DNA of 64,000 bases from Balanoglossus misakiensis (lineage: Eukaryota > Animalia > Hemichordata). Position 1 is the stretch's first letter, and the number at the start of each line of letters is the position of its first letter. This document shows positions 23,399 to 64,000 of the stretch, in pieces. The position numbers and the translations under genes are program-made. The stretch is from positions 5,171,808 to 5,235,807 of the forward strand of contig CM082585.2 of assembly GCA_040954595.2 (NCBI GenBank). Direction: 5' to 3'. Below the pieces are notes generated by a model. The model saw nothing but the letters and a program-made list of their open reading frames with translations, was not told the origin of the DNA and did no database searches.

Positions 23399-23608
23399 TC
23401 AAACTACATCTTCATCCTGGGAGTCAGGATCATCTTGGGATGTCAGCCTTTGCAACTCCTCTGCTTCAACCTAAATGAAAGAAAACAAAAATTATATATT
23501 CTAAATGCAAATTTATGCTGGCTGTGTGTATATGTGTGTATGTATGTATGGTATGTATGTTATGTTATGGTATGTATGTATGTATGTATGTATGTATGTA
23601 TGTATGTA

Positions 23609-23641
<33 letters not shown>

Positions 23642-28615: not shown

Positions 28616-28740
28616 GCATTTGCCAGAGTTGGCCAGCAAGACTATTCAAAGAACTAAATGTTTTACTTTTATTGACATTCTCTAGTCTCCTCTGGCATTG
28701 ATCTTTTCGAAATCTGGACATTTTATCCTCGGCAGACAGA

Positions 28741-31700
28741 ATGGCCACTGCAGCGCCATACGAAGACAAACCACAGGTTGGACTCTGGGAGAAATTCTTG
28801 ATTGACATGAGCAAAGAACTGACCGACGAGGAACTGAAACGCGCCAAAGTCGCCGCGAAAAAAGCCATCGGTGCCAAGGGCTTCGAAGAGATCACCGACT
28901 CCTTGGCTTTTTTCAGGGCTCTGGAGAAAGGAGGCTACATCCACGATGACGACACACACTATCTAGAAGACATCTTCGAGAGCATTCAAGTGAAAAATGT
29001 ATTGGAGGAACTGAGTGAGTACAAGAGAAAGAGGGAGGAATACGTGAAGAGGAGGAGAGAGATTGCGAACAGGCGCAATGTGGATTTTGTGGGACGAGAA
29101 TCGTATCTGAAAGAAGTGATAGACAAACTCCAGAAGCCGTCGGAGACAGTGACTTGTGTAAGCATCTGTGGTCTTGCTGGAATGGGGAAAACAGAACTGG
29201 CTCTTGAAATCTGCGCAAGGATGGACTGCAGGTATGATGGACAGTCTAATTCTGTACATGTACCAGTAGTAGTGATCTATAATGACTACCACTATGACAC
29301 TTTGAAAGTCCAGTAACATAATCTCCAACTTCTGGCTGTTGTCTGTATATCTTTGTGTTGGGTATCAACTTTGGTTCCTTGTTCTACTCTGTAAAACATA
29401 AAGAATTCCTCAGTATTTGCGTTGTTCTTTTTTCCACAGCCATTTTGTAATAATCACCAGAGAAAACAATGGGTTGGACTGAACCATGGTGGTGAAAGGG
29501 TTAATAATCAAACTACAGCATTGTTGACATTATTGGGGTGGATTGTACAGTGGACTACATTTTTACCGATGAAGATGGCCGGGGAGGGGGCTGGGAAAAT
29601 ATTGAGTACACCTGGGATAGCTACAGTTGGATTTATAGACTGGGCCAGCTGTTGTAGCTATTTCACTTTTGAATTCAATGTATGTAACCTTTCTGCTTTG
29701 ATTCAATTGTTATGAAATAAGAAAGTTCTTATTAGATATTCTTGTACACATCTTTATACCATGTTACATTACTATTGCTGAAACCCTACAAAATGATGAA
29801 ATAACCAGAAAAAAAGACAAAATTGATCATCTTTGACTTTCCCTTCATCACTTTATTTTTTTTTTTTTTGTTATTTCCAGGGCATACTATGTTGATCTGA
29901 GAGAAAAAAGCTCTGGTCGTGAAGTTGTATTGGAAATCCTATCTGCTATTGGAATGAATGTCAGCGTTGACAGTGCAGAATTCAGTATGATAAAAGACTG
30001 GGGCAGTACATGTAAAATAGGTGAGAAATAAACTGTAATTTCTGGATAATTTACACTGAAAATGTACTTGTTCACAAATTGTGCTTAAAAATTTAGCAAA
30101 ATAACAAGAGTAAGACTGAACATGTATTGCCTGGCCATGAGGGTTCTGTACCTGTTGCTTGTCCCTTTGGGACTAAACTACCAGAATAGCTTGTATTTTT
30201 GGTAACTCACAGTCATGAGGGATTATGAATGGATTAGCTCAAGTATTGGCCAGACTGTATGTGTGTGTGTGTGGTACACAGAACAGAATACTGAAATATA
30301 AGCCAAAATTTAATTTTTCAGTGACTCAATATTACAATAACTACTCAACATACTTCAACCAGGGTCGGCTGATAAAATCAACCAAAAAAATATTCCATGC
30401 TCAAAATGTTTTCTTTTCAGATACCATAATTTTCATCGACAATGCGGATCTGATTGTTGAACCGGGCAGCTATGCATCCAATGACTTCCATAACACACTG
30501 ATCGAGCTGCTCAAGGTCAAGAACCAGAGGCTGAAGGTCATGATCACGTCTCGATACGCCCTCCGAGAAAATCTCTTTAAGTCGGTCTCCTTCAGGCAAA
30601 TAGAGTTGAAGCCGTTTGAGGTTCACGAATCGGTGAAATTGCTGCAGAAATTAGCGGCAGTCCCCGACAGGGAAGCCAAAGATCTCGCCCTCTTGACAGG
30701 CAACCTGCCCCTGGCTTTGAAGATCGTCGCGAGTCGATTGAAGGACGGCATCGTCACGGCTCAAGACATTGTGAGCATGCTCGAGCCAGACAAGCAGAAA
30801 ACCATGGCGACGCTGCACTATCCCGTGCGCGACGACATCCGCTCGACCCGGAACGAGAAACCGGTCGACCAGTGCCTGAAGTTGGTCTTCAAAGCTCTCC
30901 CCGAGACGCTGAAGATCGCCTGGCTGAAGCTGTCGGTGTTTCCCAGCTCGTTCGATCAGGCCGCCGTGACGGGCGTCCTGAAGGCGGCCGACCTGGGCAC
31001 CACCAAGCTGGAGATCCTGCAGCCGCTGGTCAGTCTCTGGAAAGTCGTCAACGCGGAGCCGGACGTGATCTTCGAAAACTTGCGCGTCGGCTTCGTCGAC
31101 AAGTACAGCCTCCACCCCCTGGTGAGGTCCTACTTGCAAGAGCGGGGCAAAGACGAGAACCTGAGCAACTTCTTCGACGAGGCGCAGCACGATTACGTCC
31201 GCTACTATGACGACCTGCTGAGGAAAAACTCCAAGAAAATCGAGAGAAATTACATGAAAGTCATGCAGTTTCTGCTCGAGAGCAACAAGACCAACCTTGA
31301 CCATTATTTGAAATTGATGGTCAAACTAAACATTTGCCCTCCGCTTGAAGGCAAAAATGACCACAAGCACCTGTCTTCGACATTCTTATTGTTCGAGCAC
31401 TATCTTGACCCGGACAGACGAATCCACATCTTTGAAAGCATGGCCAAGGTTGCTAAGGACAACGGCAAGAATCTGCAGTTCTGTTTCTTGAAGGGCTTCG
31501 AGGCAGACAGCTGGATTCCCAAGGCGCACCACCAGAAGGCCCTGCGAATTCTGCAGGAGCCTTTGCAGATACTGAAATCGCTGGAAAGTAAAGCGATCGC
31601 CAACACGGATAATTACAAACTGACCTTGGCAAGTTGCGAGTATGTGCAGGGCAGGAGCTTAGTAAAATCCAGCGAATACCAGACCGGCATAGCCTTACTA

Positions 31701-33659
31701 GAAAAATCCATGAATACACGGAAACAGGTGCTGAAAAAACACACCTTCGTGGCTCGTAACATGAACGCCATCGGCCATGCTTACCATCGCTTAGCCGACA
31801 TCGAGAATTCCCTCAAATTCCACCGAGAGGCGGTGGATATGCTGTACAGCATCGCCAAAGAAGGCATGCACTTAGATATGCCCACTTTCATCCTGAATGT
31901 GGGCACGTGCTGCCACGCCAAGGGCAATGAAGCCGCAGATCGAGGCGACGCGAAAGAAAGCGATCATTTCTATCGCGAGGCCATTGAGTATTACAACAAA
32001 GCGATCGATCTGGAGAAATCCATGAATCTCTATGGCTTGGTTAAGACCGCCGTCTGCCTGAAGAACAAAGCGCTGACCTACAGAGAGATGAAGCGATACG
32101 ACGAGGCCATGCCTCTCGCGGTGGAAGCTATGGAGATCCGCATTCAGAGGTTGGGCCTCCGACACCCGGATACTGCACGCAGTGTGTACTTCGTGGGATC
32201 CTTGTACCAGGACAAAGCAGTGGAAGCTCAAGAAAAAGAGGAAATGGAAGAAATTGCAGTAACCAAGGGTAAGATGGACCAGAGCTTTCTGAATGCCCCT
32301 ATTATATCTCCATAGTTGGTTACGTTAGTGACCCTTTGCAAATCCATATGTAAGTGCTGAAATGCTTTATATTGATAAAAAAGGGTGTGTAAATTTATCA
32401 TTAAAGCCCCATGACCTGCCAAATTTCACATATTTTTTCCTCACAATTAAACAACTCAGATCTTCTTCCTATCCTCTCAAATCCTCACCCTTAAGCCATT
32501 TTACTTGTGTTTGCCTCAGTTAGCCAACTCTTGGTGACGTACACCACGAAAGTTGTGTACTCTTTGTATGGAGGCCGGTTAAATGGGTGTGGCACCAGTT
32601 TAATATACCACTTGTTCAAATTGCAACATTACATACAGCTACCATATACCATCGGGCATGGTTTCCAAAACATTGACCATCCTCCAAACCTTTCAATTCT
32701 TTGCTATAGAAAAAGTGTGCAAGGAGTCATTTTTGAACAGAGATGAAATTTGTTTTCATGAATATTGCTATTTTATTTTTTTCTCTGTAGGCTTATACAC
32801 AGAAATTGGCGTATTTCAAATATTCATGATTTAGAAAGCACAACAACATAGGAGGTGCAAGATTTACAGGATAAACATCTTCCAATGTCTTGGACATCTG
32901 TATGTATCATTGTACGGTATGCAAAACATAACATAACTGCATATTTTGGTGTGTTTTTCACAGAGAGCCATGAGTTGTATAAGGTTGCCCTGAATTACTT
33001 CAAGCAGGCTGCTGAGATTGAGGTATCTCTGGAACCGCACAGACGCAGTATTGATTATCCGGATGTTCAGGAAGGACTCCAGAAGGTTCTAACAGCTTTA
33101 CACATGGAGAAGGAAAAGGAGATGTATGAAATGCTGTTTCTGGTACGTATGTTGATTTGCAAAAGAATTATATGGCCCTCCGTATTAAAGACACAAAAGT
33201 CTCTCTCTTGCTGCCCTTTTCCAATTAATTATGTTTGATACAAGAACCCGTTTATGTTATTCTACATCTGGATATATAGTGAATCAATGTTTGACTACAC
33301 TCACACACAACTATCCCATTTGTAGGGTATGAGAGTAAAACTCTCACCAAAATGAATAACTGGTAAACACCGATTATTCATTTTGGCGAGTTTTTCACTC
33401 TCGTATCTGCAAGTGGGATGGAAGTTGTGTGTGGTTGAACGTTGATTCACTATACCGTATATCCACATGTAGAATAACATAAACAGTGTCTTGTATCAAA
33501 CATACTTAATTTAAAACGGGTAATGAGAGAGACGCTTTGTCCCTTTAATCCCGTTTTCAGAAAGCAGCCGATCAGATGTTGGCGTCGGAGGATGGCAGTG
33601 GATCTGACAGCAGTCCTGAGGAAGACACCGAAAGTGACAAATCGGACAAATCCAATTAA
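28741..33659 (+). CDS. NLR-like STAND NTPase: DED - NB-ARC - TPR repeats, ~918 aa
   Basis: Exons 28741-29231, 29881-30020, 30421-32268, 32964-33142, 33561-33659 (2757 nt, in frame). DED pattern FLIDMSKELTDEELKRAK..FFRALEKGGYI..YLEDIFESI; FVGRE; Walker A GLAGMGKT; Walker B IIFIDNAD; sensor-1 MITSR; GNLPLAL; LSVFP; MHD-like LHPLVR; TPRs (ARNMNAIGHAY, AIEYYNKAI, HPDTARSVYFVGSLY). Confidence 0.9.
33184..33548. mobile_element. ~365 bp fold-back MITE with TTAA flanks (Kolobok-like) filling the last NLR intron
   Basis: The whole element is a long imperfect palindrome: ttaaagacacaaaagtctctctc ... gagagagacgctttgtccctttaa. Confidence 0.85.
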
Positions 33660-37645: not shown

Positions 37646-38196
37646 TCACTTCTTTTGTGCGTCTTCTGCAAAAAATAGAGAACTCGGGTGAACACCACGA
37701 TCCACGGTTAAACCATTAACATAGGGCCGCGTTCGACTGCCAAAATTGCTGATAAAATAGCAATACAGAGATACTGGGCAAATAACACCAACGGTCAAAC
37801 ATGCTTTGAGTTTTGTCTGTCACACGTTGTCCGTTCCCCAACACATCGGGCGGGGATGGTGGGGGAGGGGGGGTGGTAGTTGGCACGTTTCTTTCGATTC
37901 ACGACTCAAATGTCTCTGATAATGCCTACTACACACTAGGCAACTAAAGTGTTTCACGCGAGTGAGTTATAGCGTTAAAATACATGTATGTCCAATTAAC
38001 AAAGCTAAAAATAAGAGAACTTTACGGCACCTTTAGGCTTTCGTCTTTGTGGCTCGTTGGCATCCACGTCTGTGAGGGCGACGGCGGCTTGGAATTCTGG
38101 TGTGTTTTCGGGGTACATGTCTGTGTTTTCCCCTTCTTTGCGTTCAGGTGCACCGCCTGTCGGTTTATCGCCATTATCGTTTCCCTTTGAAGACAT
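37646..38196 (-). CDS. DxNE microprotein A (61 aa, unknown family)
   Basis: Exons 38196-38031 (phase-1 donor AAG|GTGCCG, weak) and 37665-37646 (acceptor ttttttgcag): MSSKGNDNGDKPTGGAPERKEGENTDMYPENTPEFQAAVALTDVDANEPQRRKPKEDAQKK*. TATA-like element at ~38236 and kB-like site at 38477-38486. Confidence 0.55.
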
Positions 38197-42013: not shown

Positions 42014-42739
42014 ATGAGTGATACAAATGAACCCAAGGAGGTAGCCATAACTGCAACCACTGCAACAACTACCAGCACCGAACCATCTACCGATTCCAAC
42101 GAACCACAGGGTAACCGTGACGTATTGAACATTCAGTTTTGCCATCCGTATTTATAGTTGTTAACCATTTTGAATGGTTTTCAAATACATGAACCATTTT
42201 GAGTGGTTTTAGAACACTTTAAGAAACAGTCACTTCTCTGATCCTACAACTTTGTCTTTAACAATTTGTTTGTCCCACAGGTCGAGATGGCAAATATAAA
42301 TTTGAAGTGTGTGAGGTCGGCTTGGTACCAAGTCAACTGCTTGGAACCGTTTTCGGTAAGGCAATTTCAAAGGAGAATGTTTAATGTCAGTAATGGATTT
42401 CATTTCTTTCCAAATGAAAAAATGGATAGGTCATTTTACTTACTAAATCTTATTATCAACTAATTATCACAAGTCCCAACCACCGTTTTTTTCTAATCCG
42501 TGACGAAAAGCCTGGTATTAACATGCTCCATATTCAAAATGTTGGCAGCAAGTTTAGCTCAAAATACTGGATTAAACCATTATACAACTTACGAATCTGT
42601 GTTGACCGTATTCCTATGGACAATATACTCCCAGAAATACACCATTCAAATTTCAGCATATTTATTTTCTTACTTTTTACAATTGTATTAATATCATGTC
42701 TCTCACTTTATCCAAGGCGGGGCACAGTTTAGGCGTTAA
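42014..42739 (+). CDS. DxNE microprotein B (64 aa)
   Basis: Exons 42014-42110, 42281-42355, 42717-42739, then a 3'-UTR intron from 42773 to ~43438: MSDTNEPKEVAITATTATTTSTEPSTDSNEPQGRDGKYKFEVCEVGLVPSQLLGTVFGGAQFRR*. TATA at ~41896 and CCAAT upstream. Confidence 0.7.
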
Positions 42740-44290: not shown

Positions 44291-44413
44291 ATGCCCGATA
44301 CGAATCAGCCACAAGGTACCAAGACCAGAATACCCACCACACCAAAGCCAAAGCCACCGGTCCAAGGTCCCAGCTCGAATACACCTTCCAACGAAGGTTC
44401 CAAAAGGAAGTAG
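44291..44413 (+). CDS. DxNE microprotein C (40 aa; 67 aa if the in-frame TAG is read through or is a recent nonsense change)
   Basis: TATAAGA at ~44210; MPDTNQPQGTKTRIPTTPKPKPPVQGPSSNTPSNEGSKRK*. The frame stays open to donor 44465 and into an exon starting at 44828. Confidence 0.55.
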   Translation: MPDTNQPQGTKTRIPTTPKPKPPVQGPSSNTPSNEGSKRK

Positions 44414-46747: not shown

Positions 46748-47594
46748 ATGGGAGGCTCTTCCAGTACAGACGGTAACGAGGGTTCCGGTTCAAAAGGTTC
46801 CAGTGGAAACGGCAATAGTGGTAGTTCGAATACAGATACGAACGAGAGGAAAGTTGAACTAGGTGTGTATTCTCAGATGACGAATTTCAAATTTATTTTC
46901 TCTCACTCAAAACACAGACACTTTTTAAATCATGATTTATAATTCGCTTGTAGGTAACATTTGGATCATGACACCTTGTACTTCCATGCGTTACTTTGAT
47001 CAAAAGAAAAAAAGTGAAAATTCGCCATGGTTTGCCGCCACGCCTGCCATAGCGTTAACACGCCCGTTAACGCGCACGTAGCTGTAGACACAATTTTCAT
47101 AGAAACGTTTGGTGCTAGCGGTGAAATGAAATGAGCTTCTAGACTTTAGTACGATCTACAGTGTTGATCAACATAACATTAAAAAACCTCTGGCGTTGCT
47201 TTTCTCCAGATGTACTAAGCAACAATCCCTGTCTCCGTCAGCGTCCTGCCGATGGTCTTTCTGTTTCTACACGTAAGTGTATCTATATTATATACATGTA
47301 CTAGAAGCGTACAAGCAGCTACGTTGAATAGGAACAAGCGTTTAGTACATTTTATCTCGTGTCGTTTTGTACCAAATGCCGTGCTATATGATATGTAGTC
47401 AATCAAGTTTAAGCAATTCGACAGTGGACACTATCAATTCTCTATTGGACTGACAAATACTATCACCAGGGTACGTGTACCTGCTCAACATATTCATTCC
47501 TTTTTGGATATGGTCCAAGAGTTATTTAAAAGGGGGTTCCCTTCAATGAAATGACAAATACTTTTAATTTTACACAGATGGTGGTCTGCGTTAG
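46748..47594 (+). CDS. DxNE microprotein D (64 aa, MGxxxS myristoylation start)
   Basis: Exons 46748-46862, 47210-47272, 47578-47594, 3'-UTR intron 47631-47864, AATAAA 48145: MGGSSSTDGNEGSGSKGSSGNGNSGSSNTDTNERKVELDVLSNNPCLRQRPADGLSVSTHGGLR*. TATAAGA at ~46668. Confidence 0.72.
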
Positions 47595-48864
47595 AAGGAT
47601 GACGCATCTGGACAGTATGGACAAATAGAGGTATGTATTCATTGGTCGATATTTTCATGGTAAATACCTGCGTTCTCTACTATTGGCGTTAAGGTCAAGT
47701 CATCCTTATGTAAATCGCATACCCAGAAGCTATTATAAAGGACTTCTACAAAGGTCACCAAAGGTCATCAATACCTGATTTAAGTTCTATAGCGAATGAG
47801 CTGGTGAAAGGACATTTTATAAAATAACTGTGACAGTTGATTTTTGTCGTTTTCGTTGCTGCAGGTTGATCTAAAGAAATGGCGTGGAAACGCTCAAGTA
47901 AAGTGAACGTGCAGCCATGGCATACTCATCATCTTCACTTAGAAACCATTTTTGTGATTTTCTTGAATTATAATTGTCGTTTATACCGTACTGTACCTGT
48001 ATGTTAACACATCTGTAATAATTATGTTACCATCAATGTGATGTAAAATTCGCTATTTTCTTTACTCTTCAGCTGCTGTGAATTTCACCTGTAAGAACAT
48101 GATTTTCTGCATTAGAGGTTGATGTGTTTAATACAATTGTATTCAATAAAATAACAGACATTCTTGAACCCGTCGTTATTTTCGTGTGTTTTTTTTATAC
48201 GAGCTGCCGTATGGCCACATTGCATTTGTTTTATTTTGGACCATGCTCGTTTAGATGCCCAACGTAAACACCTCGAGGACAGGTAAATACTTTGGGAAGT
48301 AAAAAAACTGTTTAGCTTAGAGACAACACAAACAGTACGTTGTCATTGGCTGCTGGCCAACAATTAGAGAGCTGGAACGACACAGACGGACATTAGTCTA
48401 ATTATGGAAATCAAAGTAATGCTCGTGATTTACACATGCGACATGAATACCCTTATAGTTTTGGTGGAAATCATACTTTGTTAGTTCTACAGACACAGCT
48501 CCGGCAGATAGGCACACATTTTCAACATCAGAAAAACAACAGTGGTACATTAAAATATTAGGGTAAAGAATTAATTGACATTATACAGTGATTTTCAATG
48601 GAATTGCAATTCTTAACCGGGTAAATGTCACATGATAGGGATTCTTGTGAATGACTCACGTAAACAAAACCATCGGTCATCACGACTAAAAAAAGAAAAT
48701 CGTATGACATCACAGACACAAAGAAAAGGATTGACCAATAGAAAGGGAGAACGCGGCAGGGCAGGTAAAAAGCACGACATCGACAAAAACTCTTGCAGGT
48801 AAACTTGCGAAGAACATTTTGGTAGATGACGAGCATCTGTGAGGAGCATCTGAAGTCAAAAAAG

Positions 48865-49567
48865 ATGGGTAATTGGTGCAGTGGTGGCGACGCCAACGAA
48901 GGTTGTCCACGAGGTTGCAAATACCAACCATCAAACACAGGTTCCTGCGTAGATTCTAATGAACCGAAGGGGACGTACACACGACCACCAAATTCAGGTT
49001 TGCAAAATGAATAACGTATATGATAGTTGTGACAGATGAGAAGACGACCATCACTTGAACGTATATTGCAAATAACTGAGTGTTCTGGTTCACAAGTAGT
49101 TTAACCTTCCATTGCGAGATTTTGTGGAGAACGATCAACGTTTAGCAGAAAAACTCAAAGTATATTTAAGTCTATCAAATAACACATAAAACTTTAAAAT
49201 GCTGGCGGGTGACATTTTTTCAGAACCAATAAATTCGACTGATCATAAATATACTAATACCAGGTGTTTCTTTTGTTCTTACAACACAATTTCTCATTTT
49301 TACAGAGCAAATAGATTTATCCTTGTACGATGGAGGGCTTTACGATAGTTCAGGTACGTAGGCAGCGTTTACTACGCACATAGTTTTAGGTTTGGTCAGA
49401 TGGTCTTACATCCAGGCTAGTTTTATGACATTTCCAATCATGGTAACATTTCTTAAGAAACAATCAAACCTTATGAAGTGACAGTTTCTCCATTTTCTTG
49501 CAAGTTTTTTGCAATGAGTAAAGTCTACAATTCTTCTTTGTTTGCAGGAAACTACTATCGCCGCTAG
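48865..49567 (+). CDS. DxNE microprotein E1 (66 aa, MGNWCS myristoyl/palmitoyl-type start)
   Basis: Exons 48865-48997, 49306-49353, 49548-49567: MGNWCSGGDANEGCPRGCKYQPSNTGSCVDSNEPKGTYTRPPNSEQIDLSLYDGGLYDSSGNYYRR*. Confidence 0.72.
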
Positions 49568-51548
49568 TGCTTCAGGTAACACAGGTAAGACAATAAAATT
49601 AAAATATAGATAATCCGTCAAATATTTGATTGGTGTGCAACCAACGATGTATTTAGTTGACATCAATGGTTCTTTTGTTTAAACTGTGATTCAAATTAAG
49701 ACGAGTTGGACAGTCTTTGGACAGTCAGTTACAATGACGAATTGGGGATTCCCCCTGCAGACGAATGACTATAATCTAAAAGTATATTAATCATTTTGGA
49801 ATAGTAATTTTGACTTTCGATGGGCTTTTAAATATATATACCATTTAACACTGTAATATCCAAATTTTGTTGTTGTTTTCATAGTGCTAGGAAGTTCTGT
49901 TTTTCCTTTGCTTTGGTGAGAAATACTGGTTTGGTCACAAATGCCATAATCTTTCTTACTGTGTGCTGTGATGCTCCATATTAGCTCAGAAATTCTTCTT
50001 CAGAAAATATTGCGTCCAATTCAAACAGAATAGCATGCACATGGATATTGTACACAAAATGGTGATTGGAAGCTCAGGCCAGTTCAGTGTCCAAGAATAA
50101 ATTGTCGTTTGTTTGATTTTTTTCACGTGGCCACCCGGCAGAAATTGGCTGATCTCACATTTCCACGCGTACGGTAGCGCTGCTTAAATTTGCATAGGAA
50201 ACCTATATTTTTTACTTTTGAAAACAATGTAGTTCAAGAAAAACGCCTTGACCCATATCCGTTGACACAGAGATGTAGTAAATATTTTGAGTAATTTGTA
50301 TTTCATAGAATACCACTGACTTTATATGTACATTTTCAGTTCTTATATACAGTGATTTTGTTTTGTACATTATATGAATGGTACTAAGGTTTCATTGTAC
50401 ATGTATTTCAAAGTTGACATGTAATATCTTTAGTGTGAAATAGTTCACAGGTTAGGTCTGACCATGATGAGTTGCCAATATAGACATTAGTTTTAGTCTT
50501 CCATGGTAACTGTACATTTTTAACTTAATCAATCTAATAAAATACACTAGTTGATAATACACACCTGAAGATGCGTGATCTTTTGTTAATTACATTCTTT
50601 GCAAATAGCTTCACACACAGTCCAGAAGGTTAACAAGAAAATTGATCTTTTGGCGCTACTAAATATGCACCCAAGACACATAATACATAATGGAATGACA
50701 TTTTTGGGATATCCACCTGATATAGACGTGTGCCATTTTCCCCACGAAAACGCAGACAACAGATTACCAGCGTGTATTCCAATGGTGAAGCGAAAGTGTG
50801 CCACGTGAACTATCTATACACACTACTAGCAGCTGATAACATTGCTGCAATTGTTTTTCAAAATACAATGGCAACAAAATCTGTCGTGTGTGCATGGTGT
50901 GAATCTGAGGCGATTAAAGAGAAAAATTTAGCTGCCAACTCGGTGTCTTTGGCCAATAGTACTATTGGCACCATGAGAAAGTGTGCGCATTGAGTCGATA
51001 TTACTTGAGAACATCGAACACTTAATTACTAAATTGTAGACAAATTTAGCAAATTATACACAGCTGACCTTTGACCGAGAAACTCATTCCGTAAAGGTCA
51101 TGCGCAGAAATTCAAAGGGCATATATAGGTTTAGCTTAAACAACATTTAGAGCTTTAAATATACCATTACACTAAAATCTTATAAACATTCAGAACTTGT
51201 TAAAAAGAATCACATAACCAAGAAATATTTAAATCAATATTTAAGTCAAGCGCCTTCAATTGTTACAAGAACGAATATTCATTGCAAGCTCGTTCCATAT
51301 ATGATTAAGTTGATGCTTCGTATGTGATACTGATGTATCATATTTGTTCTAGTTGCAAACGTCTTTAGTGGACGAATTCCCTGTCTACTTGTGTTTATAT
51401 TATTTTCAATATAAGTCAACATAATTTTTTTCAACCATAACATACATTTTTTGTTAATAATGTTTAATATTAAATTAAATGAGGCCAGAAGCCGTCATTA
51501 AGTCGTCGGGTGTTTTCAAAAGATATATTGGTGATTTCATGACTTGTT

Positions 51549-51674
51549 GGGGAATTCCAGAAATTGGCCAATGGCAATGACACACGCGCGCCGCTTCTAA
51601 GACCAATAGCAAAAATCTACGTGTTGCTCCACACTGACACACGAGATCTTGCGCAATTCCAATACTATAAATAT
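51549..51674 (+). promoter_or_regulatory. kB-like site GGGGAATTCC, CCAAT boxes and TATAAAT upstream of gene F1
   Basis: GGGGAATTCC 51549-51558, several CCAAT, TATAAATA at ~51666, about 100 nt before the ATG. Conserved in copy 2. Confidence 0.6.
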
Positions 51675-51767
51675 CGAACAAGCGTTTTGTAGAAAGTAGT
51701 TTGGTGACCACATCATCCACGACATTTGCAGAAATCTGTTTTTCCTCTCGCAAAAAAATCAAAAACC

Positions 51768-52287
51768 ATGGGCAACCAAAGCAGCAACGAGCCTCGACCA
51801 AGAACTAGCAATTCAGGCTACTACTCAACCAGAGGTTATTCGTATCCGAATGTCAGTTCTAACGAACCGAAGAAAGGTATGTCAAATTTCCGTTGAAATT
51901 ATCTTTGCCTTTTGCGCCAGTGTTACAGCGAACTCGATTCCCACGAAAAGTAAGTTCCATAACCATTTGCAAAAACCCAATCAGCCAATGCATTTTCTGA
52001 CCAACTTTTTTTTCAAATCTTATTAACAACAACTTTTTTTCTGTGTTTTTCTCAAGCTGTGCGCAAACGTCGTTACGAACCTGAAGGTGGGCATTGCGGC
52101 GACGCAGACTGTCTTGAAAGAGGTAAGTATTTAAATAAATATCACGCAGTTTTCCAAAAGAAAAGAAAATATCACGAGAAATTACCAATGTGTTTCATAC
52201 GATTCCTATCTCCTCATGGACCTCATTTTCTGTCAATGTTCTCACTGTTTACAATTTTCTTCTACAGGATTTGTTCATAACCGTTAA
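51768..52287 (+). CDS. DxNE microprotein F1 (64 aa, MGxxxS start)
   Basis: Exons 51768-51876, 52057-52122, 52268-52287, then a 3'-UTR intron to ~52721: MGNQSSNEPRPRTSNSGYYSTRGYSYPNVSSNEPKKAVRKRRYEPEGGHCGDADCLERGFVHNR*. Strong Kozak context accATGG. Confidence 0.75.
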
Positions 52288-53484
52288 CACATTTGGACAG
52301 GTACGTCCACGTCCTACTTTTGGCCGGTGAGTACATCAGATTACCTCATTGTTTACAGTGCACTACTTCTAAAACAACCTCCTTGATGTCTTCTCTGAAG
52401 GGAATACTCACTGTGTATCATGTCCATGCCCAAGTGGTACTACATGTATTTAAAGTCCGTATAGCTTGTTGCCAAAGCAAAATAGAGTACCGCCTTTAAT
52501 ACTGTCATGATATTATCCGGGGTCAATATTCATGTTACCTTGTGTTGCAAATACAATGCTCTGACAAAAGGCACTCGGGTCTAGCACATTCCAGCTCAGC
52601 TAAACCCTGAGGTTTTGTTGATTTATTTATAGCAGAGAGTCACACGAGAACAGATCAGAATTTTTCGTTGTGGCACTGTTAGATTTGCTCTTGCACTTAC
52701 TGTATTTCGATTCATTTACAGATTACCATATAAATTCTGAAACCGGCAAATACCTCCTCAAGCCTTCACCATCGTCTACAGTGCACAACATCATGTTTCA
52801 AGGACAAGTACTCCGTCCCAGGGAAAATCCAAGTCGTTTTAGCAAGGACGCAGAGAAACTTGTTGCAATAACCATCTTTAGTACTGTTGACATTGTCATT
52901 AATTATGTTACGTTACCATGACACCGTTGTCCAAACACTGTAATTCAACACAATGATTATTGTTTAACCACAAACACCCGATCTGTATCATTCACTGTCT
53001 ACGTCAGTACCGTGTGATACCCGCTTTTAAATATCACAGTTTTCACAGTTTAACATTAAATTACACTAATATTATTTTTTAGGCTGTGTCAATCAAGTTT
53101 TATAGTAATGTCTATACATGTTGTCAGGTCATTCTTTTACTGCCAGAGTTTTAATTGTTCACTTTCATTCCTTTGTCGCAATGTAAAATTAATTCGGTAA
53201 GGTTTTATACTAGTGTGCATGGATTTTTCACTTTTTCAAAATGAACAAAGGTCAATTCTCCCAAGGAAGTTACTCATAGTTCTTTATATGCAATACAAAT
53301 GTGTTCAATTACATGGAATGTATCCTGTTTGATTATAGTTTATCACAGTAGTATAGTGTAGGTCAATTTGCCTTACTTTTGGATGTGCAGGTAATCTGAA
53401 GTTCTGTTATTAAAATATTAATATATTGACTCGATATGTCCATTAGTTTGTATGTATGGGTGAAACACCGTAACGTTAGTAGCA

Positions 53485-53651
53485 TGACTCATTTTGACCG
53501 AGATTGGTTGGTTAACGATGATTGATAGACGAAACAGTTTTTTTTTTTTCATAAACGTTCTCACAAAAACACTGTGCATGAATCAGCTAATTCTTGTGGA
53601 AATCCCCTCATCTATTATGCACTGGAATTTACCGACCAGTAGCATGACTCA
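53485..53651 (+). promoter_or_regulatory. AP-1 (TGACTCA x2) plus kB-like (GGAAATCCCC) module upstream of gene G1
   Basis: TGACTCA 53485-53491 and 53645-53651; GGAAATCCCC 53598-53607. Confidence 0.5.
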
Positions 53652-54098
53652 CTGTTGGCGTTGATTGGCTGATCGTCCTGAATGACCGGGAGTATCTTTT
53701 AAGAATACACAAACCCTAACACACACACAAACAAACAAACAAACAAACACTTTTCAATTTACTTTTTTTCCGATGCAACGGACGACAAAAAGGATGATGA
53801 CATCGCTGGACAGAACATGAGAAAATAACCACTGAAATGCTAATACGGTTGTGCCCAGAACCTTATTGGTCGTAATTTTATTCTATCAGCCAACCAAAAA
53901 ACAACACCAGATCCCATTGGTCACAACTAAATAATAGCATTCCTCCAAAATCACACATATACAATTTTAACTTCAGGGTGCGTAGTTGTCTACCTTGAGC
54001 ACATTCAAAATCAAGACTGTCAAGTATTGGCCCAAAAGCAAATTCATCGAGTTGAACGTCTGTTGTTTTATCACCTGTACAACTTACTATTGCTCATC

Positions 54099-54404
54099 AT
54101 GTCAGCTACAGAAACTGGACTAAGACACCCACACAATGGCGTGGAAATACACTATGACGAGAGATGCGAATATATTATTTTGAGACGAAGGTCGCAATAC
54201 GACCAAGAAGACCGCCAGTATCAAGTGAAGGTAATCCAACGACATTGCTACTGTCCAAACCCCAAGCCGAGGGTGGAAACACATCGAAATCATTGGTGTG
54301 CCTACAGGCAAACCCGCCATCGTTACTCTTACAAACTGGTTCGAAGTTGTGTGTGTGGACAATTCTACTCTCCTAATCCAAACATTGATGTAAACGAGCT
54401 GTAA
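54099..54404 (+). CDS. Cys/His-rich microprotein G1 (101 aa), two internal repeats, C-terminal DVNEL
   Basis: Single-exon ORF MSATETGLRHPHNGVEIHYDERCEY...RHCYCPNPKPRVETHRNHWCAY...RSCVCGQFYSPNPNIDVNEL*. The frame is kept in copy 2, including a 3-nt indel. Confidence 0.72.
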   Translation: MSATETGLRHPHNGVEIHYDERCEYIILRRRSQYDQEDRQYQVKVIQRHCYCPNPKPRVETHRNHWCAYRQTRHRYSYKLVRSCVCGQFYSPNPNIDVNEL

Positions 54405-55491
54405 ATCACGGGTGGTGACGTTAAGGACAGGTCCCGAGAAACAAAAACTTTACAGCTGTGACGTGGTGGAGAAAAGCGTCAAAGAGCTCGCATTGGCCTA
54501 ACTGGAACGAGTGACGTCTCTGAACAACATGCGTTGGAAGATTACACAGCGACATTGAATCAAGTCACCTATGGACATGTACTTCTACACGGGACATAAT
54601 TTTCCTCATCATCAACATTCGTCGGTGAAAGATTGGCTACTGACTGATTTAATCCACACATAGCAAAATGTGTGCACCATCTAAAAAGGCAACGTTTAAA
54701 AATATCGGACACGGTAAATTCACATAAAGTTTCATTTCGCAACAGGTTTTGAACAACATGTTTTGTATTTTATTTTAGTAGTGACTTCATTCTTGAACCC
54801 GTCGTTATTTTCGTGTGTTTTTTATACGAGCTGCCGTATGGCCACATTGCATTTGTTTTATTTTGAACCATGCTCGTTTAGATGCCCAACGTAAACACCT
54901 CGAGGACAGGTAAATACTTTGGGAAGTAAAAAAACTGTTTAGCTTAGAGACAACACAAACAGTACGTTGTCATTGGCTGCTGGCCAACAATTAGAGAGCT
55001 GGAACGACACAGACGGACATTAGTCTAATTATGGAAATCAAAGTAATGCTCGTGATTTACACATGCGACATGAATACCCTTATAGTTTTGGTGGAAATCA
55101 TACTTTGTTCGTTCTACAGACACAGCTCCGGGATATAGGCACACATTTTCAACATCAGAAAAACAACAGTGGTACATTAAAATATTAGGGTAAAGAATTA
55201 ATTGACATTATACAGTGATTTTCAATGGAATTGCAATTCTTAACCGGGTAAATGTCACATGATACGGATTCTTGTGAATGACTCACGTAAACAAAACCAT
55301 CGGTCATCACGACTAAAAAAGAAAATCGTATGACATCACAGACACAAAGAAAAGGATTGACCAATAGAAAGGGAGAACGCGGCAGGGCAGGTAAAAAGCA
55401 CGACATCGACAAAAACTCTTGCAGGTAAACTTGCGAAGAACATTTTGGTAGCTGACGAGCATCTGTGAGGAGCATCTGAAGTCAAAAAAAG

Positions 55492-56193
55492 ATGGGTAAT
55501 TGGTGCAGTGGTGGCGACGCCAACGAAGGTTGTCCACGAGGTTGCAAATACCAACCATCAAACATAGGTTCCTGCGTAGATTCTAATGAACCGAAGGGGA
55601 CGTACACACGACCACCAAATTCAGGTTTGCAAAATGAATAACGTATATGATAGTTGTGACAGATGAGAAGACGACCATCACTTGAACGTATATTGCAAAT
55701 AACTGAGTGTTCTGGTTCACAAGTAGTTTAACCTTCCATTGCGAGATTTTGTGGAGAACGATCAACGTTTAGCAGAAAAACTCAAAGTATATTTAAGTCT
55801 ATCAAATAACACATAAAACTTTAAAATGCTGGCGGGTGACATTTTTTCAGAACCAATAAATTCGACTGATCATAAATATACTAATACCAGGTGTTTCTTT
55901 TGTTCTTACAACACAATTTCTCATTTTACAGCGCAAATAGATTTATCCTTGTACGATGGAGGGCTTTACGATAGTTCAGGTACGTAGGCAGCGTTTACTA
56001 CGCACATAGTTTTAGGTTTGGTCAGATGGTCTTACATCCAGGCTAGTTTTATGACATTTCCAATCATGGTAACATTTCTTAAGAAACAATCAACCCTTAT
56101 GAAGTGACAGTTTCTCCATTTTCTTGCAAGTTTTTTGCAATGAGTAAAGTCTACAATTCTTCTTTGTTTGCAGGAAACTACTATCGCCGCTAG
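55492..56193 (+). CDS. DxNE microprotein E2 (66 aa)
   Basis: Exons 55492-55624, 55932-55979, 56174-56193; differs from E1 by T25I and E45A. Confidence 0.72.
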
Positions 56194-58773
56194 TGCTTCA
56201 GGTAACACAGGTAAGACAATAAAATTAAAATATAGATAATCCGTCAAATATTTGATTGGTGTGCAACCAACGATGTATTTAGTTGACATCAATGGTTCTT
56301 TTGTTTAAACTGTGATTCAAATTAAGACGAGTTGGACAGTCTTGTGACGTGAGCACACAAGTTGGAAGTTGACGTCTTTGATAGGGAGCGGCTGTGTGGA
56401 ATTTCAAAAGTGAAAGTGACTTCACTCTAATGTCGTCTGATAAAAAATGGCAAAAACAACTGACAGAGCATGCGTGGACAAGAAAACAGGCGGGGCTGGG
56501 AGGTCAGATGATCGATCATTATAACGTCTATGTGAACGACTGAAGGTTTATTACAATAGAGTAATTTTATGACAAACAGCACACTAATTACTTTATTTTC
56601 ACGTTATTTACTTTCAGGCGTTTCGATTTACCCGAAACTTGTGACAGAGTCTACATTGTTTTAAGACCATATAAGGAGATGGTTACCATATAAGGAGATG
56701 GTGACAAAGCAGAAATCATTGGAATTCAGTTACAATGACGAATTGGGGATTCCCCCTGCAGACGAATGACTATAATCTAAAAGTATATTAATCATTTTGG
56801 AATAGTAATTTTGACTTTCGATGGGCTTTTAAATATATATACCATTTAACACTGTAATATCCAAATTTTGTTTTTGTTTTCATAATGCTAGGAAGTTCTG
56901 TTTTTCCTTTGCTTTGGTGAGAAATACTGGTTTGGTCACAAATGCCATAATCTTTCAATTTCTTACTGTGTGCTGTGATGCTCCATATTAGCTCAGAAAT
57001 TCTTCTTCAGAAAATATTGCGTCCAATTCAAACAGAATAGCATGCACATGGATATTGTACACAAAATGGTGATTGGAAGCTCAGGCCAGTTCAGTGTCCA
57101 AGAATAAATCGTCGTTTGTTTGATTTTTTTCACGTGGCCACCCGGCAGAAATTGGCTGATCTCACATTTCCACGCGTACGGTAGCTCTGCTTAAATTTGC
57201 ATAGGAAACCTATATTTTTTACTTTTGAAAGCAATGTAGTTCAAGAAAAACGCCTTGACCCATATCCGTTGACACAGAGATGTAGTAAATATTTTGAGTA
57301 ATTTGTATTTCATAGAATACCACTGACTTTATATGTACATTTTCAGTTCTTATATACAGTGATTTTGTTTTGCACATTATATGAATGGTACTAAGGTTTC
57401 ATTGTAAATGTATTTCAAAGTTGACATGTATTATCTTTAGTGTGAAATAGTTCACAGGTTAGGTCTGACCATGATGAGTTGCCAATATAGACATTAGTTT
57501 TAGTCTTCCATGGTAACTGTAAATTTTTAACTTAATCAATCTAATAAAATACACTAGTTGATAATACACACCTGAAGATGCGTGATCTTTTGTTAATTAC
57601 ATTCTTTGCAAATAGCCTCACACACAGTCCAGAAGGTTAACAAGAAAATTGATCTTTTGGCGCTACTAAATATGCACCCAAGACACATAATACATAATGG
57701 AATGACATTTTTGGGATATCCACCTGATATAGACGTGTGCCATTTTCCCCACGAAAACGCAGACAACAGATTACCTGCGTGTATTCCAATGGCGAAGCGA
57801 AAGTGTGCCACGTGAACTATCTATACACACTACTAGCAGCTGATAACATTGCTGCAATTGTTTTTCAAAATACAATGGCAACAAAATCTGTCGTGTGTGC
57901 ATGGTGTGAATCTGAGGCGATTAAAGAGAAAAATTTAGCTGCCAACTCGGTGTCTTTGGCCAATAGTACTATTGGCACTATGAGAAAGTGTGTGCATTGA
58001 GTCGATATTACTTGAGAACATCGAACACTTAATTACTAAATTGTAGACAAATTTAGCAAATTCTACACAGCTGACCTTTGACCGAGAAACACATTCCGTA
58101 AAGGTCATGCGCAGCAATTCAAAGGGCATATAAAGTTTAGCTTAAACAACATTTAGAGCTTTAGATATACCATTACACTAAAATCTTATAAACATTCAGA
58201 ACTTGTTAAAAAGAATCACATAACCAAGAAATATTTAAATCAATATTTAAGTCAAGCGCCTTCAATTGTTACAAGAACGAATATTCATTGCAAGCTCGTT
58301 CCATATATGATTAAGTTGATGCTTCGTATGTGATACTGATGTATCATATTTGTTCTAGTTGCCAGCGTCTTTAGTGGACGAATTCCCTGTCAACTTGTGT
58401 TTATATTATTTTCAATATAAGTCAACACAACTTTTTTCAACCATTACATACATTTTTTGTTAATAATGTTTAATATTAAATTAAATGAGGCCAGAAGCCG
58501 TCATTAAGTCGTCGGGTGTTTTCAAAAGATATATTGGTGATTTCATGACTTGTTGGGGAATTCCAGAAATTGGCCAATGGCAATGACACACGCGCGCCGC
58601 TTCTAAGACCAATAGCAAAATTCTACGTGTTGCTCCACACTGACACACGAGATCTTGCGCAATTCCAATACTATAAATATCGAACGAGCGTTTTGTAGAA
58701 AGTAGTTTGGTGACCACATCATCCACGACATTTGCAGAAATCTTTTTTTTTCCTCTGGCAAAAATCGAAAACC

Positions 58774-59295
58774 ATGGGCAACCAAAGCAGCAACGAGCCG
58801 CGACCAAGAACTAGCAATTCAGGCTACTACTCAACCAGAGGTTATTCGTATCCCAATGTCAGTTCTAACGAACCAAAGAAAGGTATGTCAAATTTCTCAT
58901 GAAATTGTCTTTGCCTTTTGCGCCAGTGTTACAGCGAACTCGATTCCCACGAAAAATAAGTTCCATAATCATTTGCAAAAAAACAATCATGCAGCCAATG
59001 GATTTTCTGACCGATTATTTTCCAAATCTTTTAACAACAACTTTTTTTCTGTGTTTTTTTCAAGCTGTGCGCAAACGTCGTTACGAACCTGAAGGTGGGC
59101 ATTGCGGCGACGCAGACAGTCTTGAAAGAGGTAAGCATCTAAACAAATATCACGCAGTTTTCCAAAAGAAAAGAAAATATTACGAGAAATTACCAATGTG
59201 TTTCATACGATTCCTATCTCCTCATGGAACTCATTTTCTGTCAATGTTCTCACTGTTTACAATTTTGTCCCACAGGATTTGTTCATAACCGTTAA
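58774..59295 (+). CDS. DxNE microprotein F2 (64 aa)
   Basis: Exons 58774-58882, 59065-59130, 59276-59295; three synonymous Pro-codon changes and one Cys>Ser change versus F1. Confidence 0.75.
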
Positions 59296-61061
59296 CACAT
59301 TTGGACAGGAATGCCCACGTCCTACTTTTGGCCGGTGAGTACATCAGATTACCTCATTGTTTACTGTTCACTACTTTTAAAACAACCGCCTTGATGTCTT
59401 CTCTGAAAAGAATATTCACTGTGTATCATGTCCACGCCCAAGTGGTACTACATGTATGTAAAGTCCATACAGCTTGTTGCCAAAGCAAAATAGAATACCG
59501 CCTTACTGTCATGATAGTATACGGGGTCAACATTCATGTTATCTTGTGTTGCAAATACAATGCTCTGACAAAAGACACTCGGGTCTAGCACATTCCAGCT
59601 CAGCTAAACCCTGAGGTTTTGTTGATTTATTTATAGCAGAGAGTCACACGAGAACAGATCAGAATTTTTCGTTGTGGCACTGTTAGATTTGCTCTTGCAC
59701 TTACTGTATTTCGATTCATTTACAGATTACCATATAAATTCTGAAACCGGCAAATACCTCCTCAAGCCTTCACCATCGTCTACAGTGCACAACATCATGT
59801 TTCAAGGACAAGTACTCCGTCCCAGAGAAAATCCAAGTCGTTTTAGCAAGGACGCAGAGAAACTTGTTTCAATCACCATCTTTAGTACTGTTGACATTGT
59901 CATTAATTATGTTACGTTACCATGACACTGTAATTCAACACAATGCTTATTGTTTAACCACAAACACCCGATCTGTCTACGTCAGCACCGTGTGATACCC
60001 GCTTTTAAATATCACAGTTTTCACAGTTTAACATTAAATTACACTAATATTATTTTTGAGGCTGTGTCAATCAAATTTTATATTAATGTCTATACATGTT
60101 GCCAGGTCATTCTTTTACTGCCAGAGTTTTAATTGTTCACTTTCATTCCTTTGTCGCAATGTAAAATTAATTCGGTAAGGTTTTATACTAGTGTGCATGG
60201 ATTTTTCACTTTTTCAAAATGAACAAAGGTCAATTCTCCCAAGGAAGTTACTCATAGTTCTTTATATGCAATACAAATGTGTTCAATTACATGGAATGTA
60301 TCCTGTTTGATTATAGTTTATCACAGCAGTATAGTGTAGGTCAATTTGCCTTACTTTTGGATGTGCAGGTAATCTTAAGTTCTGTTATTAAAATATTAAT
60401 ATATTGACTCGATATGTCCATTAGTTTGTATGTATGGGTGAAACACCGTCACGTTAGTAGCATGACTGATTTTGACCGAGATTGGTTGGTTAACGATAAT
60501 TGATAGACGAAACAGTTTTTTTTTTTCAAAAACGTTCTCACAAAAACACAGTGAATGAATCAGCTAATTCTTGTGGAAATCCCCTCATCTATTATGCAAT
60601 GGAATTTACCGACCAGTAGCATGACTCACTGTTGGCGTTGATTGGCTGATCGTCCTGAATGACCGGGAGTATCTTTTAAGAATACCTTAACACACACACA
60701 AACAAACAAACACTTTTCAATTTACTTTTTTCCGATGCAACGGACGACAAAAAGGATGATGACATCGCTGGACAGAACATTGAGAAAATAACCACTGAAA
60801 TGCTAATACGGTTGTGCCCCGAACCTTATTGGTCTTAATTTTATACTATCAGCCAACCAAAAATCAACACCAGATCCCATTGGTCACAACTGAATAATAG
60901 CATTCCTCCAAAATCACACATATAAAATTTTAACGTCAGGGTGCGTAGTTGTCTACCTTGAGTACATTCAAAATCAAGACTGCCAAGTATTGGCCCGCAA
61001 GTCAATTCATCGAGTTGAACGTTTGCTGCTTAATCTCCTGTACAGCTTACAATTGTTCATA

Positions 61062-61370
61062 ATGTCAGCAACAGAAACTGGACTAAGACACCCACATAAT
61101 GGCGTGGAAATACACTATGACGAGAGATGCGAATATATTATTTTGAGACGATGGTCGCAATACGTCCAAGAAGACCGCCAGTATCGAGTGAAGGTAATCC
61201 AACGACATTGCTACTGTCCAGACCCCAAGCCGATGAGGGTGGAAACACATCGAAATCATTGGTGTGCCTACAGGCAAACCCGCCATCGTTACTCTTACAA
61301 ACTGGTTCGAAGTTGTGTGTGTGGACAATTCTACTCTCCTAATCCAAACATTGATGTAAACGAGCTGTAA
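61062..61370 (+). CDS. Cys/His-rich microprotein G2 (102 aa)
   Basis: Paralog of G1. All Cys/His and DVNEL are kept, with an in-frame Met insertion; TATAAAA at ~60921. Confidence 0.72.
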   Translation: MSATETGLRHPHNGVEIHYDERCEYIILRRWSQYVQEDRQYRVKVIQRHCYCPDPKPMRVETHRNHWCAYRQTRHRYSYKLVRSCVCGQFYSPNPNIDVNEL

Positions 61371-61753
61371 ATCACGGGTGGTGACGTTAAGGACAGGTCC
61401 CGAGAAACAAAAACTTTACAGCTGTGACGTGGTGGAGAAAAGCGTCAAAGAGCTCGCATTGGCCTAACTGGAACGAGTGACGTCTCTGAACAACATGCGT
61501 TGGAAGATTACACAGCGACATTGAATCAAGTCACCTATGGACATGTACTTCTACACGGGACATAATTTTCCTCATCATCAACATTCGTCGGTGAAAGATT
61601 GGCTACTGACTGATTTAATCCACACATAGCAAAATGTGTGCACCATCTAAAAAGGCAACGTTTAAAAATATCGGACACGGTAAATTCACATAAAGTTTCA
61701 TTTCGCAACAGGTTTTGAACAACATGTTTTGTATTTTATTTTAGTAGTGACTT

Positions 61754-64000
61754 CATTCTTGAACCCGTCGTTATTTTCGTGTGTTTTTTATACGAGCTGC
61801 CGTATGGCCACATTGCATTTGTTTTATTTTGGACCATGCTCGTTTAGATGCCCAACGTAAACACCTCGAGGACAGGTAAATACTTTGGGAAGTAAAAAAA
61901 CTGTTTTGCTTAGAGACAACACAAACAGTACGTTGTCATTGGCTGCTGGCCAACAATTAGAGAGCTGGAACGACACAGACGGACATTAGTCTAATTATGG
62001 AAATCAAAGTAATGCTCGTGATTTACACATGCGACATGAATACCTTATAGTTTTGGTGGAAATCATACTTTGTTCGTTCTACAGACACAGCTCCGGGATA
62101 TAGGCACACATTTTCAACATCAGAAAAACAACAGTGGTACATTAAAATATTAGGGTAAAGAATTAATTGACATTATACAGTGATTTTCAATGGAATTGCA
62201 ATTCTTAACCGGGTAAATGTCACATGATACGGATTCTTGTGAATGACTCACGTAAACAAAACCATCGGTCATCACGACTAAAAAAGAAAATCGTATGACA
62301 TCACAGACACAAAGAAAAGGATTGACCAATAGAAAGGGAGAACGCGGCAGGGCAGGTAAAAAGCACGACATCGACAAAAACTCTTGCAGGTAAACTTGCG
62401 AAGAACATTTTGGTAGCTGACGAGCATCTGTGAGGAGCATCTGAAGTCAAAAAAAGATGGGTAATTGGTGCAGTGGTGGCGACGCCAACGAAGGTAGTCC
62501 ACGAGGTCGCAAATACCAACCATCAAACACAGGTTCCAGCGCAGATTATAATGAACCGAGGAGGACGTACACACGACCACCAAATTCAGGTTTGCAAAAT
62601 GAATAACGTATAGGATAGTTGTGACAGATGAGAAGACGACCATCACTTGAACGTATATTGCAAATAACTGAGTGTTCTGGTTCACAAGTAGTTTAACCTT
62701 CCATTGCGAGATTTTGTGGAGAACGATCAACGTTTAGCAGAAAAACTCAAAGTATATTTAAGTCTATCAAATAACACATAAAACTTTAAAATGCTGGCGG
62801 GTGACATTTTTTCAGAACCAATAAATTCGACTGATCATAAATATACTAATACCAGGTGTTTCTTTTGTTCTTACAACACAATTTCTCATTTTTACAGAGC
62901 AAATAGATTTATCCTTGTACGATGGAGGGCTTTACGATAGTTCAGGTACGTAGACAGCGTTTACTACGCACATAGTTTTAGGTTTGGTCAGATGGTCTTA
63001 CATCCAGGCTAGTTTTATGACATTTCCAATCATGGTAACATTTCTTAAGAAGCAATCAAACCTTATGAAGTGACAGTTTCTCCATTTTCTTGCAAGTTTT
63101 TTGCAATGAGTAAAGTCTACAATTCTTCTTTGTTTGCAGGAAACTACTATCGCCGCTAGTGCTTCAGGTAACACAGGTAAGACAATAAAATTAAAATATA
63201 GATAATCCGTCAAATATTTGATTAGTGTGCAACCAACGATGTATTTAGTTGACATCAATGGTTCTTTTGTTTAAACTGTGATTCAAATTAAGACGAGTTG
63301 GACAGTCTTGTGACGTGAGCACACAAGTTGGAAGTTGACGTCTTTGATAGGGAGCGGCTGTGTGGAATTTCAAAAGTGAAAGTGACTTCACTCTAATGTC
63401 GTCTGATAAAAAATGGCAAAAACAACTGACAGAGCATGCGTGGACAAGAAAACAGGCGGGGCTGGGAGGTCAGATGATCGATCATTATAACGTCTATGTG
63501 AACGACTGAAGGTTTATTACAATAGAGTAATTTTATGACAAACAGCACACTAATTACTTTATTTTCACGTTATTTACTTTCAGGCGTTTCGATTTACCCG
63601 AAACTTGTGACAGAGTCTACATTGTTTTAAGACCATATAAGGAGATTGTTACCATATAAGGAGATGGTGACAAAGCAGAAATCATTGGAATTCAGTTACA
63701 ATGACGAATTGGGGATTCCCCCTGCAGACGAATGACTATAATCTAAAAGTATATTAATCATTTTGGAATAGTAATTTTGACTTTCGATGGGCTTTTAAAT
63801 ATATATACCATTTAACACTGTAATATCCAAATTTTGTTTTTGTTTTCATAGTGCTAGGAAGTTCTGTTTTTCCTTTGCTTTGGTGAGAAATACTGGTTTG
63901 GTCACAATCGCCATAATCTTTCAATTTCTTACTGTGTGCTGTGATGCTCCATATTAGCTCAGAAATTCTTCTTCAGAAAATATTGCGTCCAATTCAAACA
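61754..64000 (+). repeat. Tandem segmental repeat, copy 3 (truncated by window end; gene E3)
   Basis: Same start sequence; colinear with copy 2 to the end of the window. Confidence 0.95.
62457..63159 (+). CDS. DxNE microprotein E3 (66 aa, Cys-poor variant)
   Basis: Exons 62457-62589, 62898-62945, 63140-63159: MGNWCSGGDANEGSPRGRKYQPSNTGSSADYNEPRRTYTRPPNSEQIDLSLYDGGLYDSSGNYYRR*. Confidence 0.72.

Follow-up and report, generated by a model that had tools for sequence, protein, structure and literature searches.

Among described protein modules, those that come closest to the sequence considered here are the zinc knuckles and the zinc clasps. The CCHC knuckle ends in H-x4-C, and the CxCP motif in the tails of CD4 and CD8 shares a zinc ion with Lck. 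In the window analysed here, a single stretch of 64,000 nucleotides, an open reading frame that we call G (54099..54404, plus strand; ATG at 54099, 101 codons, TAA at 54402-54404) encodes a product of 101 amino acids with a comparable layout, i.e., short clusters of Cys and His in a hydrophilic, cytosolic-type sequence, with H-x4-C present twice and C-x-C-P once (C50-Y-C52-P53). As in the zinc clasps, its likely partner exon (see below) begins with an N-terminal acylation-type sequence. Unlike the knuckles and clasps, G has no CxxC half-site, its putative ligands would stand 27 or 17 residues apart across a hairpin, and neither the whole protein nor either of its halves matched a zinc-finger or zinc-knuckle family in Pfam at E values up to 10; in addition, the C-x-C spacing is uncommon among zinc knuckles, which counts against a zinc model. 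The reading that we prefer, tentatively and at somewhat less than even chances, is that G is coding sequence of a lineage-restricted small-protein gene, in which it forms the terminal exon behind a small upstream exon starting MGNQ, and that its two half-sites clasp beta-hairpins around zinc.

The product of G is very hydrophilic and basic (GRAVY -1.15, pI 9.0), with 13 Arg, 9 Tyr, 7 His and 6 Cys among its 101 residues; it starts with MSATE. Its first half-repeat (54141..54263, plus strand) reads V15-E-x-H18-x4-C23-x-Y25...C50-x-C52-P-N-P and the second (54273..54380, plus strand) V59-E-x-H62-x4-C67-x-Y69...C84-x-C86...P-N-P. The twofold V-E-x-H-x4-C-x-Y...C-x-C pattern described in the initial annotation thus matches the translation exactly, and it is found in the paralogous copy G2 as well. 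The C-terminus, given there as PNIDVNEL followed by the stop, was likewise confirmed in the translation; it carries D-V-N-E-L at 54387..54401 on the plus strand (DVNE at 54387-54398), and D-x-N-E is common to the neighbouring small ORFs. A signal peptide had been declared absent, and in agreement with this the N-terminus has no hydrophobic segment: nowhere is G hydrophobic enough for a signal peptide or a membrane-spanning helix, the Kyte–Doolittle maximum (9-residue) being -0.11 in the first 35 amino acids. A KDEL-type ER-retrieval protein was considered and rejected, since G ends in V-N-E-L and has no signal peptide; the C-terminus of such proteins follows [KRHQSA]-[DENQ]-E-L, a set in which V does not occur.

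Two hairpin-like segments that each end in C-x-C, together with six Cys, also give G a likeness to the IL-17-type and cystine-knot cytokines, and a basic strand followed by the CxC spacing loosely resembles the last hairpin of the IL-17-type members. On this basis G could form the final exon of a protein that is secreted and disulfide-bonded, with two beta-hairpin fingers, three disulfides and a signal peptide on an upstream exon, a reading that is helped by the even number of Cys in the layout C...CxC...C...CxC and by an in-frame acceptor at G that permits an upstream exon. We hold it to be very unlikely: the signal peptide is missing from G itself, the nearest first-exon candidates on the same strand start MG..., of the myristoylation type, with no hydrophobic leader, and a search at E values up to 10 gave neither a cystine-knot or IL17 match in Pfam nor a sequence match in PDB. 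G also differs from these cytokines in having neither C-x-G-x-C nor C-x4-C, and membership of the two families was rejected, as neither a signal peptide nor a match to a family model or a solved member was found. With no secretion signal, a product of G would be expected in a reducing compartment, the cytosol, where metal ligation is likelier than disulfide formation.

G lies in the first of three tandem units of about 7 kb, whose copies are 96-99% identical. Unit 1 (48159..54787) carries a small exon starting MGNW, the MGNQ exon and G; unit 2 (54788..61753) carries G2 (61062..61370, plus strand, 102 codons); unit 3 (61754..64000) is truncated where the window ends and does not reach its copy of G. 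G and G2 are located 384 nt before the 3′ end of their respective units, and there is neither a third copy upstream of unit 1 nor any copy elsewhere in the window outside the units. A segment of 372 nt at 56344-56715, which begins with TGACGT motifs, is present in units 2 and 3 and absent from unit 1, the result of either an insertion or a deletion. G2 differs from G by 2 synonymous changes, by R30W, D35V, Q42R and N54D, and by one inserted Met codon (3 nt). Despite the four substitutions and the codon insertion, G2 retains all 7 His and all 6 Cys, as the initial annotation had pointed out; this retention is nevertheless uninformative, because G and G2 are recent copies carried by successive tandem units and random placement of 4 substitutions misses all 13 His and Cys in about 0.58 of cases.

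The differences between the units (194 in 5135 aligned columns) are very unevenly spread. The bin 54014-54113 holds 15 of them, all but one upstream of the ATG of G; within the ORF the count drops to 3 and 5 in two bins of 100 nt, a point in favour of coding, and no difference is seen over the 430 nt that follow the stop. The low divergence extends past the ORF, and recent homogenisation may therefore explain the quiet zone as well as constraint does. The main alternative, which we hold to be almost as probable as the preferred reading, is that G is a chance open frame in the non-coding DNA of a recently duplicated and partly homogenised unit of about 7 kb, with the His/Cys pattern, the repeat and DVNEL being coincidental and picked post hoc. 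The indel between the two copies is a point against it, since the only one is in frame. Within the quiet zone, just 3′ of the stop of G, three TGACGT motifs resembling CRE half-sites occur in about 100 nt (54416-54517), a tract that is 100% identical between units and that could be a promoter or enhancer for the MGNW exon of the next unit, or for a minus-strand transcript.

Searches with G, G2 and both halves against Pfam reached no family at threshold, and the sole match was DUF6174 (PF19671), whose function is unassigned, at 13.5 bits for G and 18.6 bits for G2 against a gathering cut-off of 23.8 bits. Halves scored separately gave 16.1 and 15.9 bits, confined to positions 3-40 of the 122 in the profile, a third of it; the match comes from the second half-repeat (16 bits, E 0.015), and the first half-repeat had no match. 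No sequence in PDB matched G at E values up to 10. A word-index homology search found nothing at near lengths, and at longer lengths none of the 5 candidates that were scored had E <= 1. An exhaustive HMMER search of 1.84 billion protein representatives gave a single match, P0101, a protein of 603 aa with E 4.6e-9, which proved to be about 7 near-identical units of about 84 aa of a translated tandem repeat (satellite). A single stretch of it scores 16 bits against G (E 0.59), and P0101 was rejected as a homologue because its E value sums weak matches over identical repeat units. The protein atlas gave no usable match either, with a recognition score of 1411 compared with the 2300 reached by 91 in 100 proteins of known families. 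No true homologue of G was found, though the collections searched include annotated hemichordate proteomes. The nearest annotated relatives are distant, the best named relatives of the neighbouring DUF229 protein being hemichordate at 60%, 50% and 46% identity (Ptychodera flava, Glandiceps talaboti and Saccoglossus kowalevskii are named), which makes the absence of homologues for a small, fast-evolving protein a weaker argument. Judged by the same DUF229 relatives, the source genome is acorn-worm-like.

The initial annotation had called the putative domain in G unrecognised; with no Pfam family at threshold, no PDB sequence match and no true homologue, this description holds, and as far as sequence comparison goes G is an orphan. 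AlphaFold2, run on the single sequence with no alignment, gave a mean pLDDT of 38.5, with 93 of the 101 residues below 50, and the only secondary structure in the model is a low-confidence hairpin (25-35/40-51); such a prediction is unusable as a structure. The lack of a homologue, a domain and a confident fold is what a chance frame would give. It is also a trait of the taxon-restricted orphan ORFs of young tandem arrays, which G resembles in having no homologues in very large collections, a codon usage near background, and copies in tandem units that are 96-99% identical, beside small exons that change fast; these ORFs are a class rather than a family, and their usual criterion is expression. 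No paper on a DxNE motif or on DUF6174 was found in the library searched, and among the matches listed for HCCC zinc sites, tandem-repeat genes and orphan genes none was relevant.

The weak DUF6174 match of the second half (16 bits, E 0.015) and the position of G in a repeated unit would also fit a relic of some older gene or mobile element, decayed and since duplicated together with the rest of the unit. We consider this the most remote of the readings, as the match covers only positions 3-40 of 122 and lies under the 23.8-bit cut-off, no further copy of G occurs in the window outside the units, and 33001-54800 (unit 1 and the DNA upstream of it) showed no terminal repeats and no DNA paralogy. 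Moreover, none of the 28 ORFs scanned from 32852 onward (hand-picked, at least 70 aa, none beyond 54449) has a Pfam family, transposase and reverse transcriptase included. An Rfam scan of 47000-64000 gave no match.

Small ORFs that resemble first exons are clustered upstream of G; every one of them has two [DS]xNE[PGR] motifs, and they are probably the family that the initial annotation had labelled A-F. On the plus strand these are MSDTNEPK...DSNEPQG (42014-42157), MPDTNQPQG...SNEG (44291-44413), MGGSSSTDGNEG...DTNERK (46748-46942), MGNWCSGGDANEG...DSNEPKG (48865-49014, the MGNW exon, with copies at 55492 and 62457) and MGNQSSNEP...SSNEPKKG (51768-51896, with a copy at 58774), and on the minus strand ...DVDANEPQRR (38005-38196). 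Three of them open with MGxxxS, their ATG having A at -3 and G at +4, and MGxxxS fits the N-myristoylation consensus. Each of the six loci offers a phase-1 donor on a GGT codon at which it can end; the clearest, AAAG/GTATGT at 51877/51878, closes the candidate first exon MGNQSSNEP...SSNEPKK (51768..51877, plus strand, phase 1), itself one with the N-myristoylation-type start. Several pairs are more similar than shuffled sequences, among them MGNQ/MSDT, MGNW/MPDT and MGGS/MPDT, which are closer than any of 500 shuffles, and a comparison of 33-55 kb with itself, at both the DNA and the ORF level, revealed no paralogy among the loci; the count of NEP, 12, is not above that in shuffles (mean 6.4, maximum 15 in 100).

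The copies of these exons in the successive units follow two patterns. Between 51768-51877 and 58774-58883 the MGNQ exon has 3 changes, all in synonymous Pro codons, and its flanks, immediately 5′ of the ATG and immediately 3′ of the GTATGT donor, are much more diverged between units than the exon. In the MGNW exon (48865-48996, 55492-55623 and 62457-62588) all 8 variable columns are non-synonymous, three of the four Cys are replaced in unit 3, and the flanks hardly differ, a pattern in the aligned copies that suggests diversifying selection or decay. Taken together, the family looks like real, fast-evolving coding sequence.

The likeness of G to the six family members is weak beyond the four-residue motif, since between 7 and 470 of 1000 shuffles attain the scores of its alignments with them. 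G carries [DS]-x-N-E in frame, and it has neither the MGxxxS start nor the wider similarity of the family. A six-frame translation of the window contains the motif D.NE at 17 places, of which 11 are in small family-like ORFs or their duplicates, 2 in G and G2, and 4 elsewhere. Only in G and G2 does it stand within 2 residues of a stop, and in the other small ORFs it is internal, so that it is not a shared C-terminus; the earlier claim that G bears the same DxNE motif as A-F holds for the motif in frame. The rarity of D.NE outside the family (4 of 17) makes it unlikely that a chance frame would carry it, and in G the motif ends the frame on the strand of the family and within its cluster.

A possible structural link between G and this family is offered by a candidate 3′ splice site at the start of the ORF (54083..54105, plus strand), which consists of a pyrimidine-rich tract, a branch-like CTTAC and an AG at 54104-54105. 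An exon beginning from it at 54106 would be in phase 1 and keep the frame of G, and the site is conserved in G2. The start of G has A at -3 or, if spliced, an in-phase acceptor, and the conservation of these in both copies speaks against a chance frame. The acceptor agrees in phase with the MGNQ donor, which lies in the same duplicated unit and on the same strand, 2.2 kb upstream, an agreement to be expected by chance one time in three. It may be, then, that G is the terminal exon of the MGNQSSNEP gene, with a putative junction at 51877^54106, and the joined product would have roughly 135 aa and a lipid-anchor-type start. Should G be coding, we give a terminal exon and a stand-alone gene equal weight. 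The initial annotation had taken G to be intronless, which is not supported in view of this frame-keeping, phase-matched acceptor. It had also proposed a convergent acquisition of DxNE; if G belongs to the MGNQ gene, the motif would be shared by common descent or by common gene membership, and the proposal of convergence is probably wrong.

The internal repeat was assessed both by shuffling and against other frames of the window. A local alignment of the two halves of G scores 41, where the shuffle means are 22-24, and this score was reached in 12 of 2000 shuffles of the second half, in 3 of 2000 shuffles of the whole protein and in none of 500 with a free split. The halves differ in codon at 11 of their 15 identical aligned residues, and at the DNA level they give at best a weak, out-of-register alignment, whose score 28 of 1000 shuffles attain. 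The repeat is, on this reading of the sequence, one of protein rather than of DNA and, if real, would be old at the protein level rather than the product of a recent DNA duplication; Tandem Repeats Finder reported nothing within the ORF. Repetition of this kind, with different codons and a score that no shuffle with a free split attained, argues against a coincidental frame. Real sequence was less accommodating than shuffles: among 104 windows of 101 aa from other frames, which comprise every open frame of at least 101 codons in bases 1-54788 (units 2 and 3 being omitted as duplicates), G ranks 8th for self-repetition. Five of the seven windows that outscore it are translated microsatellites and two are ordinary frames (scores 42 and 43), of which one runs antisense to a real gene; the existence of these two favours coincidence. 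The repeat of G is nominally significant, yet it is unexceptional once the frames open to inspection are counted.

Most of the remaining statistics are also compatible with a chance frame. In 300 Markov-shuffled versions of the non-redundant 21.8 kb, frames of at least 150 codons arose 0.39 times per simulation, and 33% of the simulations contained at least one, so that the length of the ORF is ordinary; the real 21.8 kb has two such frames, of which the other (48558-49100, minus strand, 180 codons) is not kept across units. Upstream, the frame of G remains open over a further 56 codons, a stretch with 17 differences between the copies, and the antisense frame is open as well, over 109 aa; both facts favour chance. 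A codon score trained on five Pfam-supported exons of the window (ends trimmed) gives G -0.058, the best of its six frames, which falls below both the mean (0.28) and the 5th percentile (0.12) of true coding windows and is equalled or exceeded by 14% of 128 ORFs from the gene-poor 33-64 kb. Its synonymous-only score is -0.063, compared with a coding 5th percentile of -0.018, and is reached by 9% of 53 ORFs of the non-coding region; its GC3 is 0.44, compared with 0.64 in the known genes of the window. With both scores at about the 86th-90th percentile of the ORFs from non-coding regions, G is intermediate and closer to the latter, again a point for chance. The neighbouring small exons score much like G, however, and the codon test may thus miss the whole young family.

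DNA contigs from three runs of one sample supplied further versions of G with D35V and N64S in new combinations, none of them frame-broken. The tally over copies and contig variants, 2 synonymous and 5 non-synonymous substitutions with one in-frame indel of 3 nt, appears to lie roughly at the neutral expectation, as a chance frame would have it. In the same sense, the plus strand has no AATAAA or ATTAAA for about 770 nt after the stop of G, until 55176. Neither the substitution tally nor codon usage nor the length of the ORF tells coding from chance here, and whether G is a real coding sequence is, in our estimate, an even question.

In the reading preferred above, the MGNQSSNEP first exon would be spliced to G across 51877^54106 and the joined product would be N-myristoylated. 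H18/C23/C50/C52 and H62/C67/C84/C86 would each form one zinc site, giving the two HCCC sites that the initial annotation had put forward with a disulfide fold as the alternative, with each H-x4-C...C-x-C half-site clasping the open end of a beta-hairpin around the ion; the hairpin modelled by AlphaFold2, at low confidence, would place C23 beside C50 and C52. If G is coding, zinc has about the same chance as disulfides or neither taken together, and zinc binding by G is, overall, rather unlikely. A broader scheme may be drawn, of an acorn-worm-lineage family of membrane-anchored, N-myristoylated mini-proteins with repeated [DS]xNE[PL] docking motifs, of which one member gained a last exon with a hitherto undescribed double zinc-clasped hairpin, in a locus that expands by 7-kb tandem duplication and whose coding exons diverge fast; we offer it as speculation with little probability. 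If translated, G would be a small Cys/His module with no detectable relative, and the locus would show clearly, in a genome of hemichordate type, a small-protein locus that is young and expands in tandem, useful for studying the origin of new genes and of new metal sites. If G is a chance frame, it serves as a warning that a neat arrangement of His and Cys, even when a 95%-identical duplicate preserves it, does not demonstrate function. The finding bears on no long-standing open question.

A Pfam scan of 41 hand-picked ORFs, out of 202 frames of at least 70 aa, assigned families to 7, all of them left of 32.4 kb: fn3 (twice), DUF229, a sulfotransferase, a nucleotide-sugar transporter, DED/NB-ARC and TPR. 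The last of these belong to a gene on the plus strand (28702-29313 and 30219-32315), upstream of the small-ORF cluster, with a DED - NB-ARC/STAND NTPase - TPR architecture of the innate-immunity type. At 33184-33549 there is a large imperfect palindrome of about 366 nt, with 76% identity to its own reverse complement. Two microsatellite tracts, at 22109-22415 and 23330-24055, yield long frames of IHSF and CMYV repeats, which inflate lists of ORFs and self-repeat scores.
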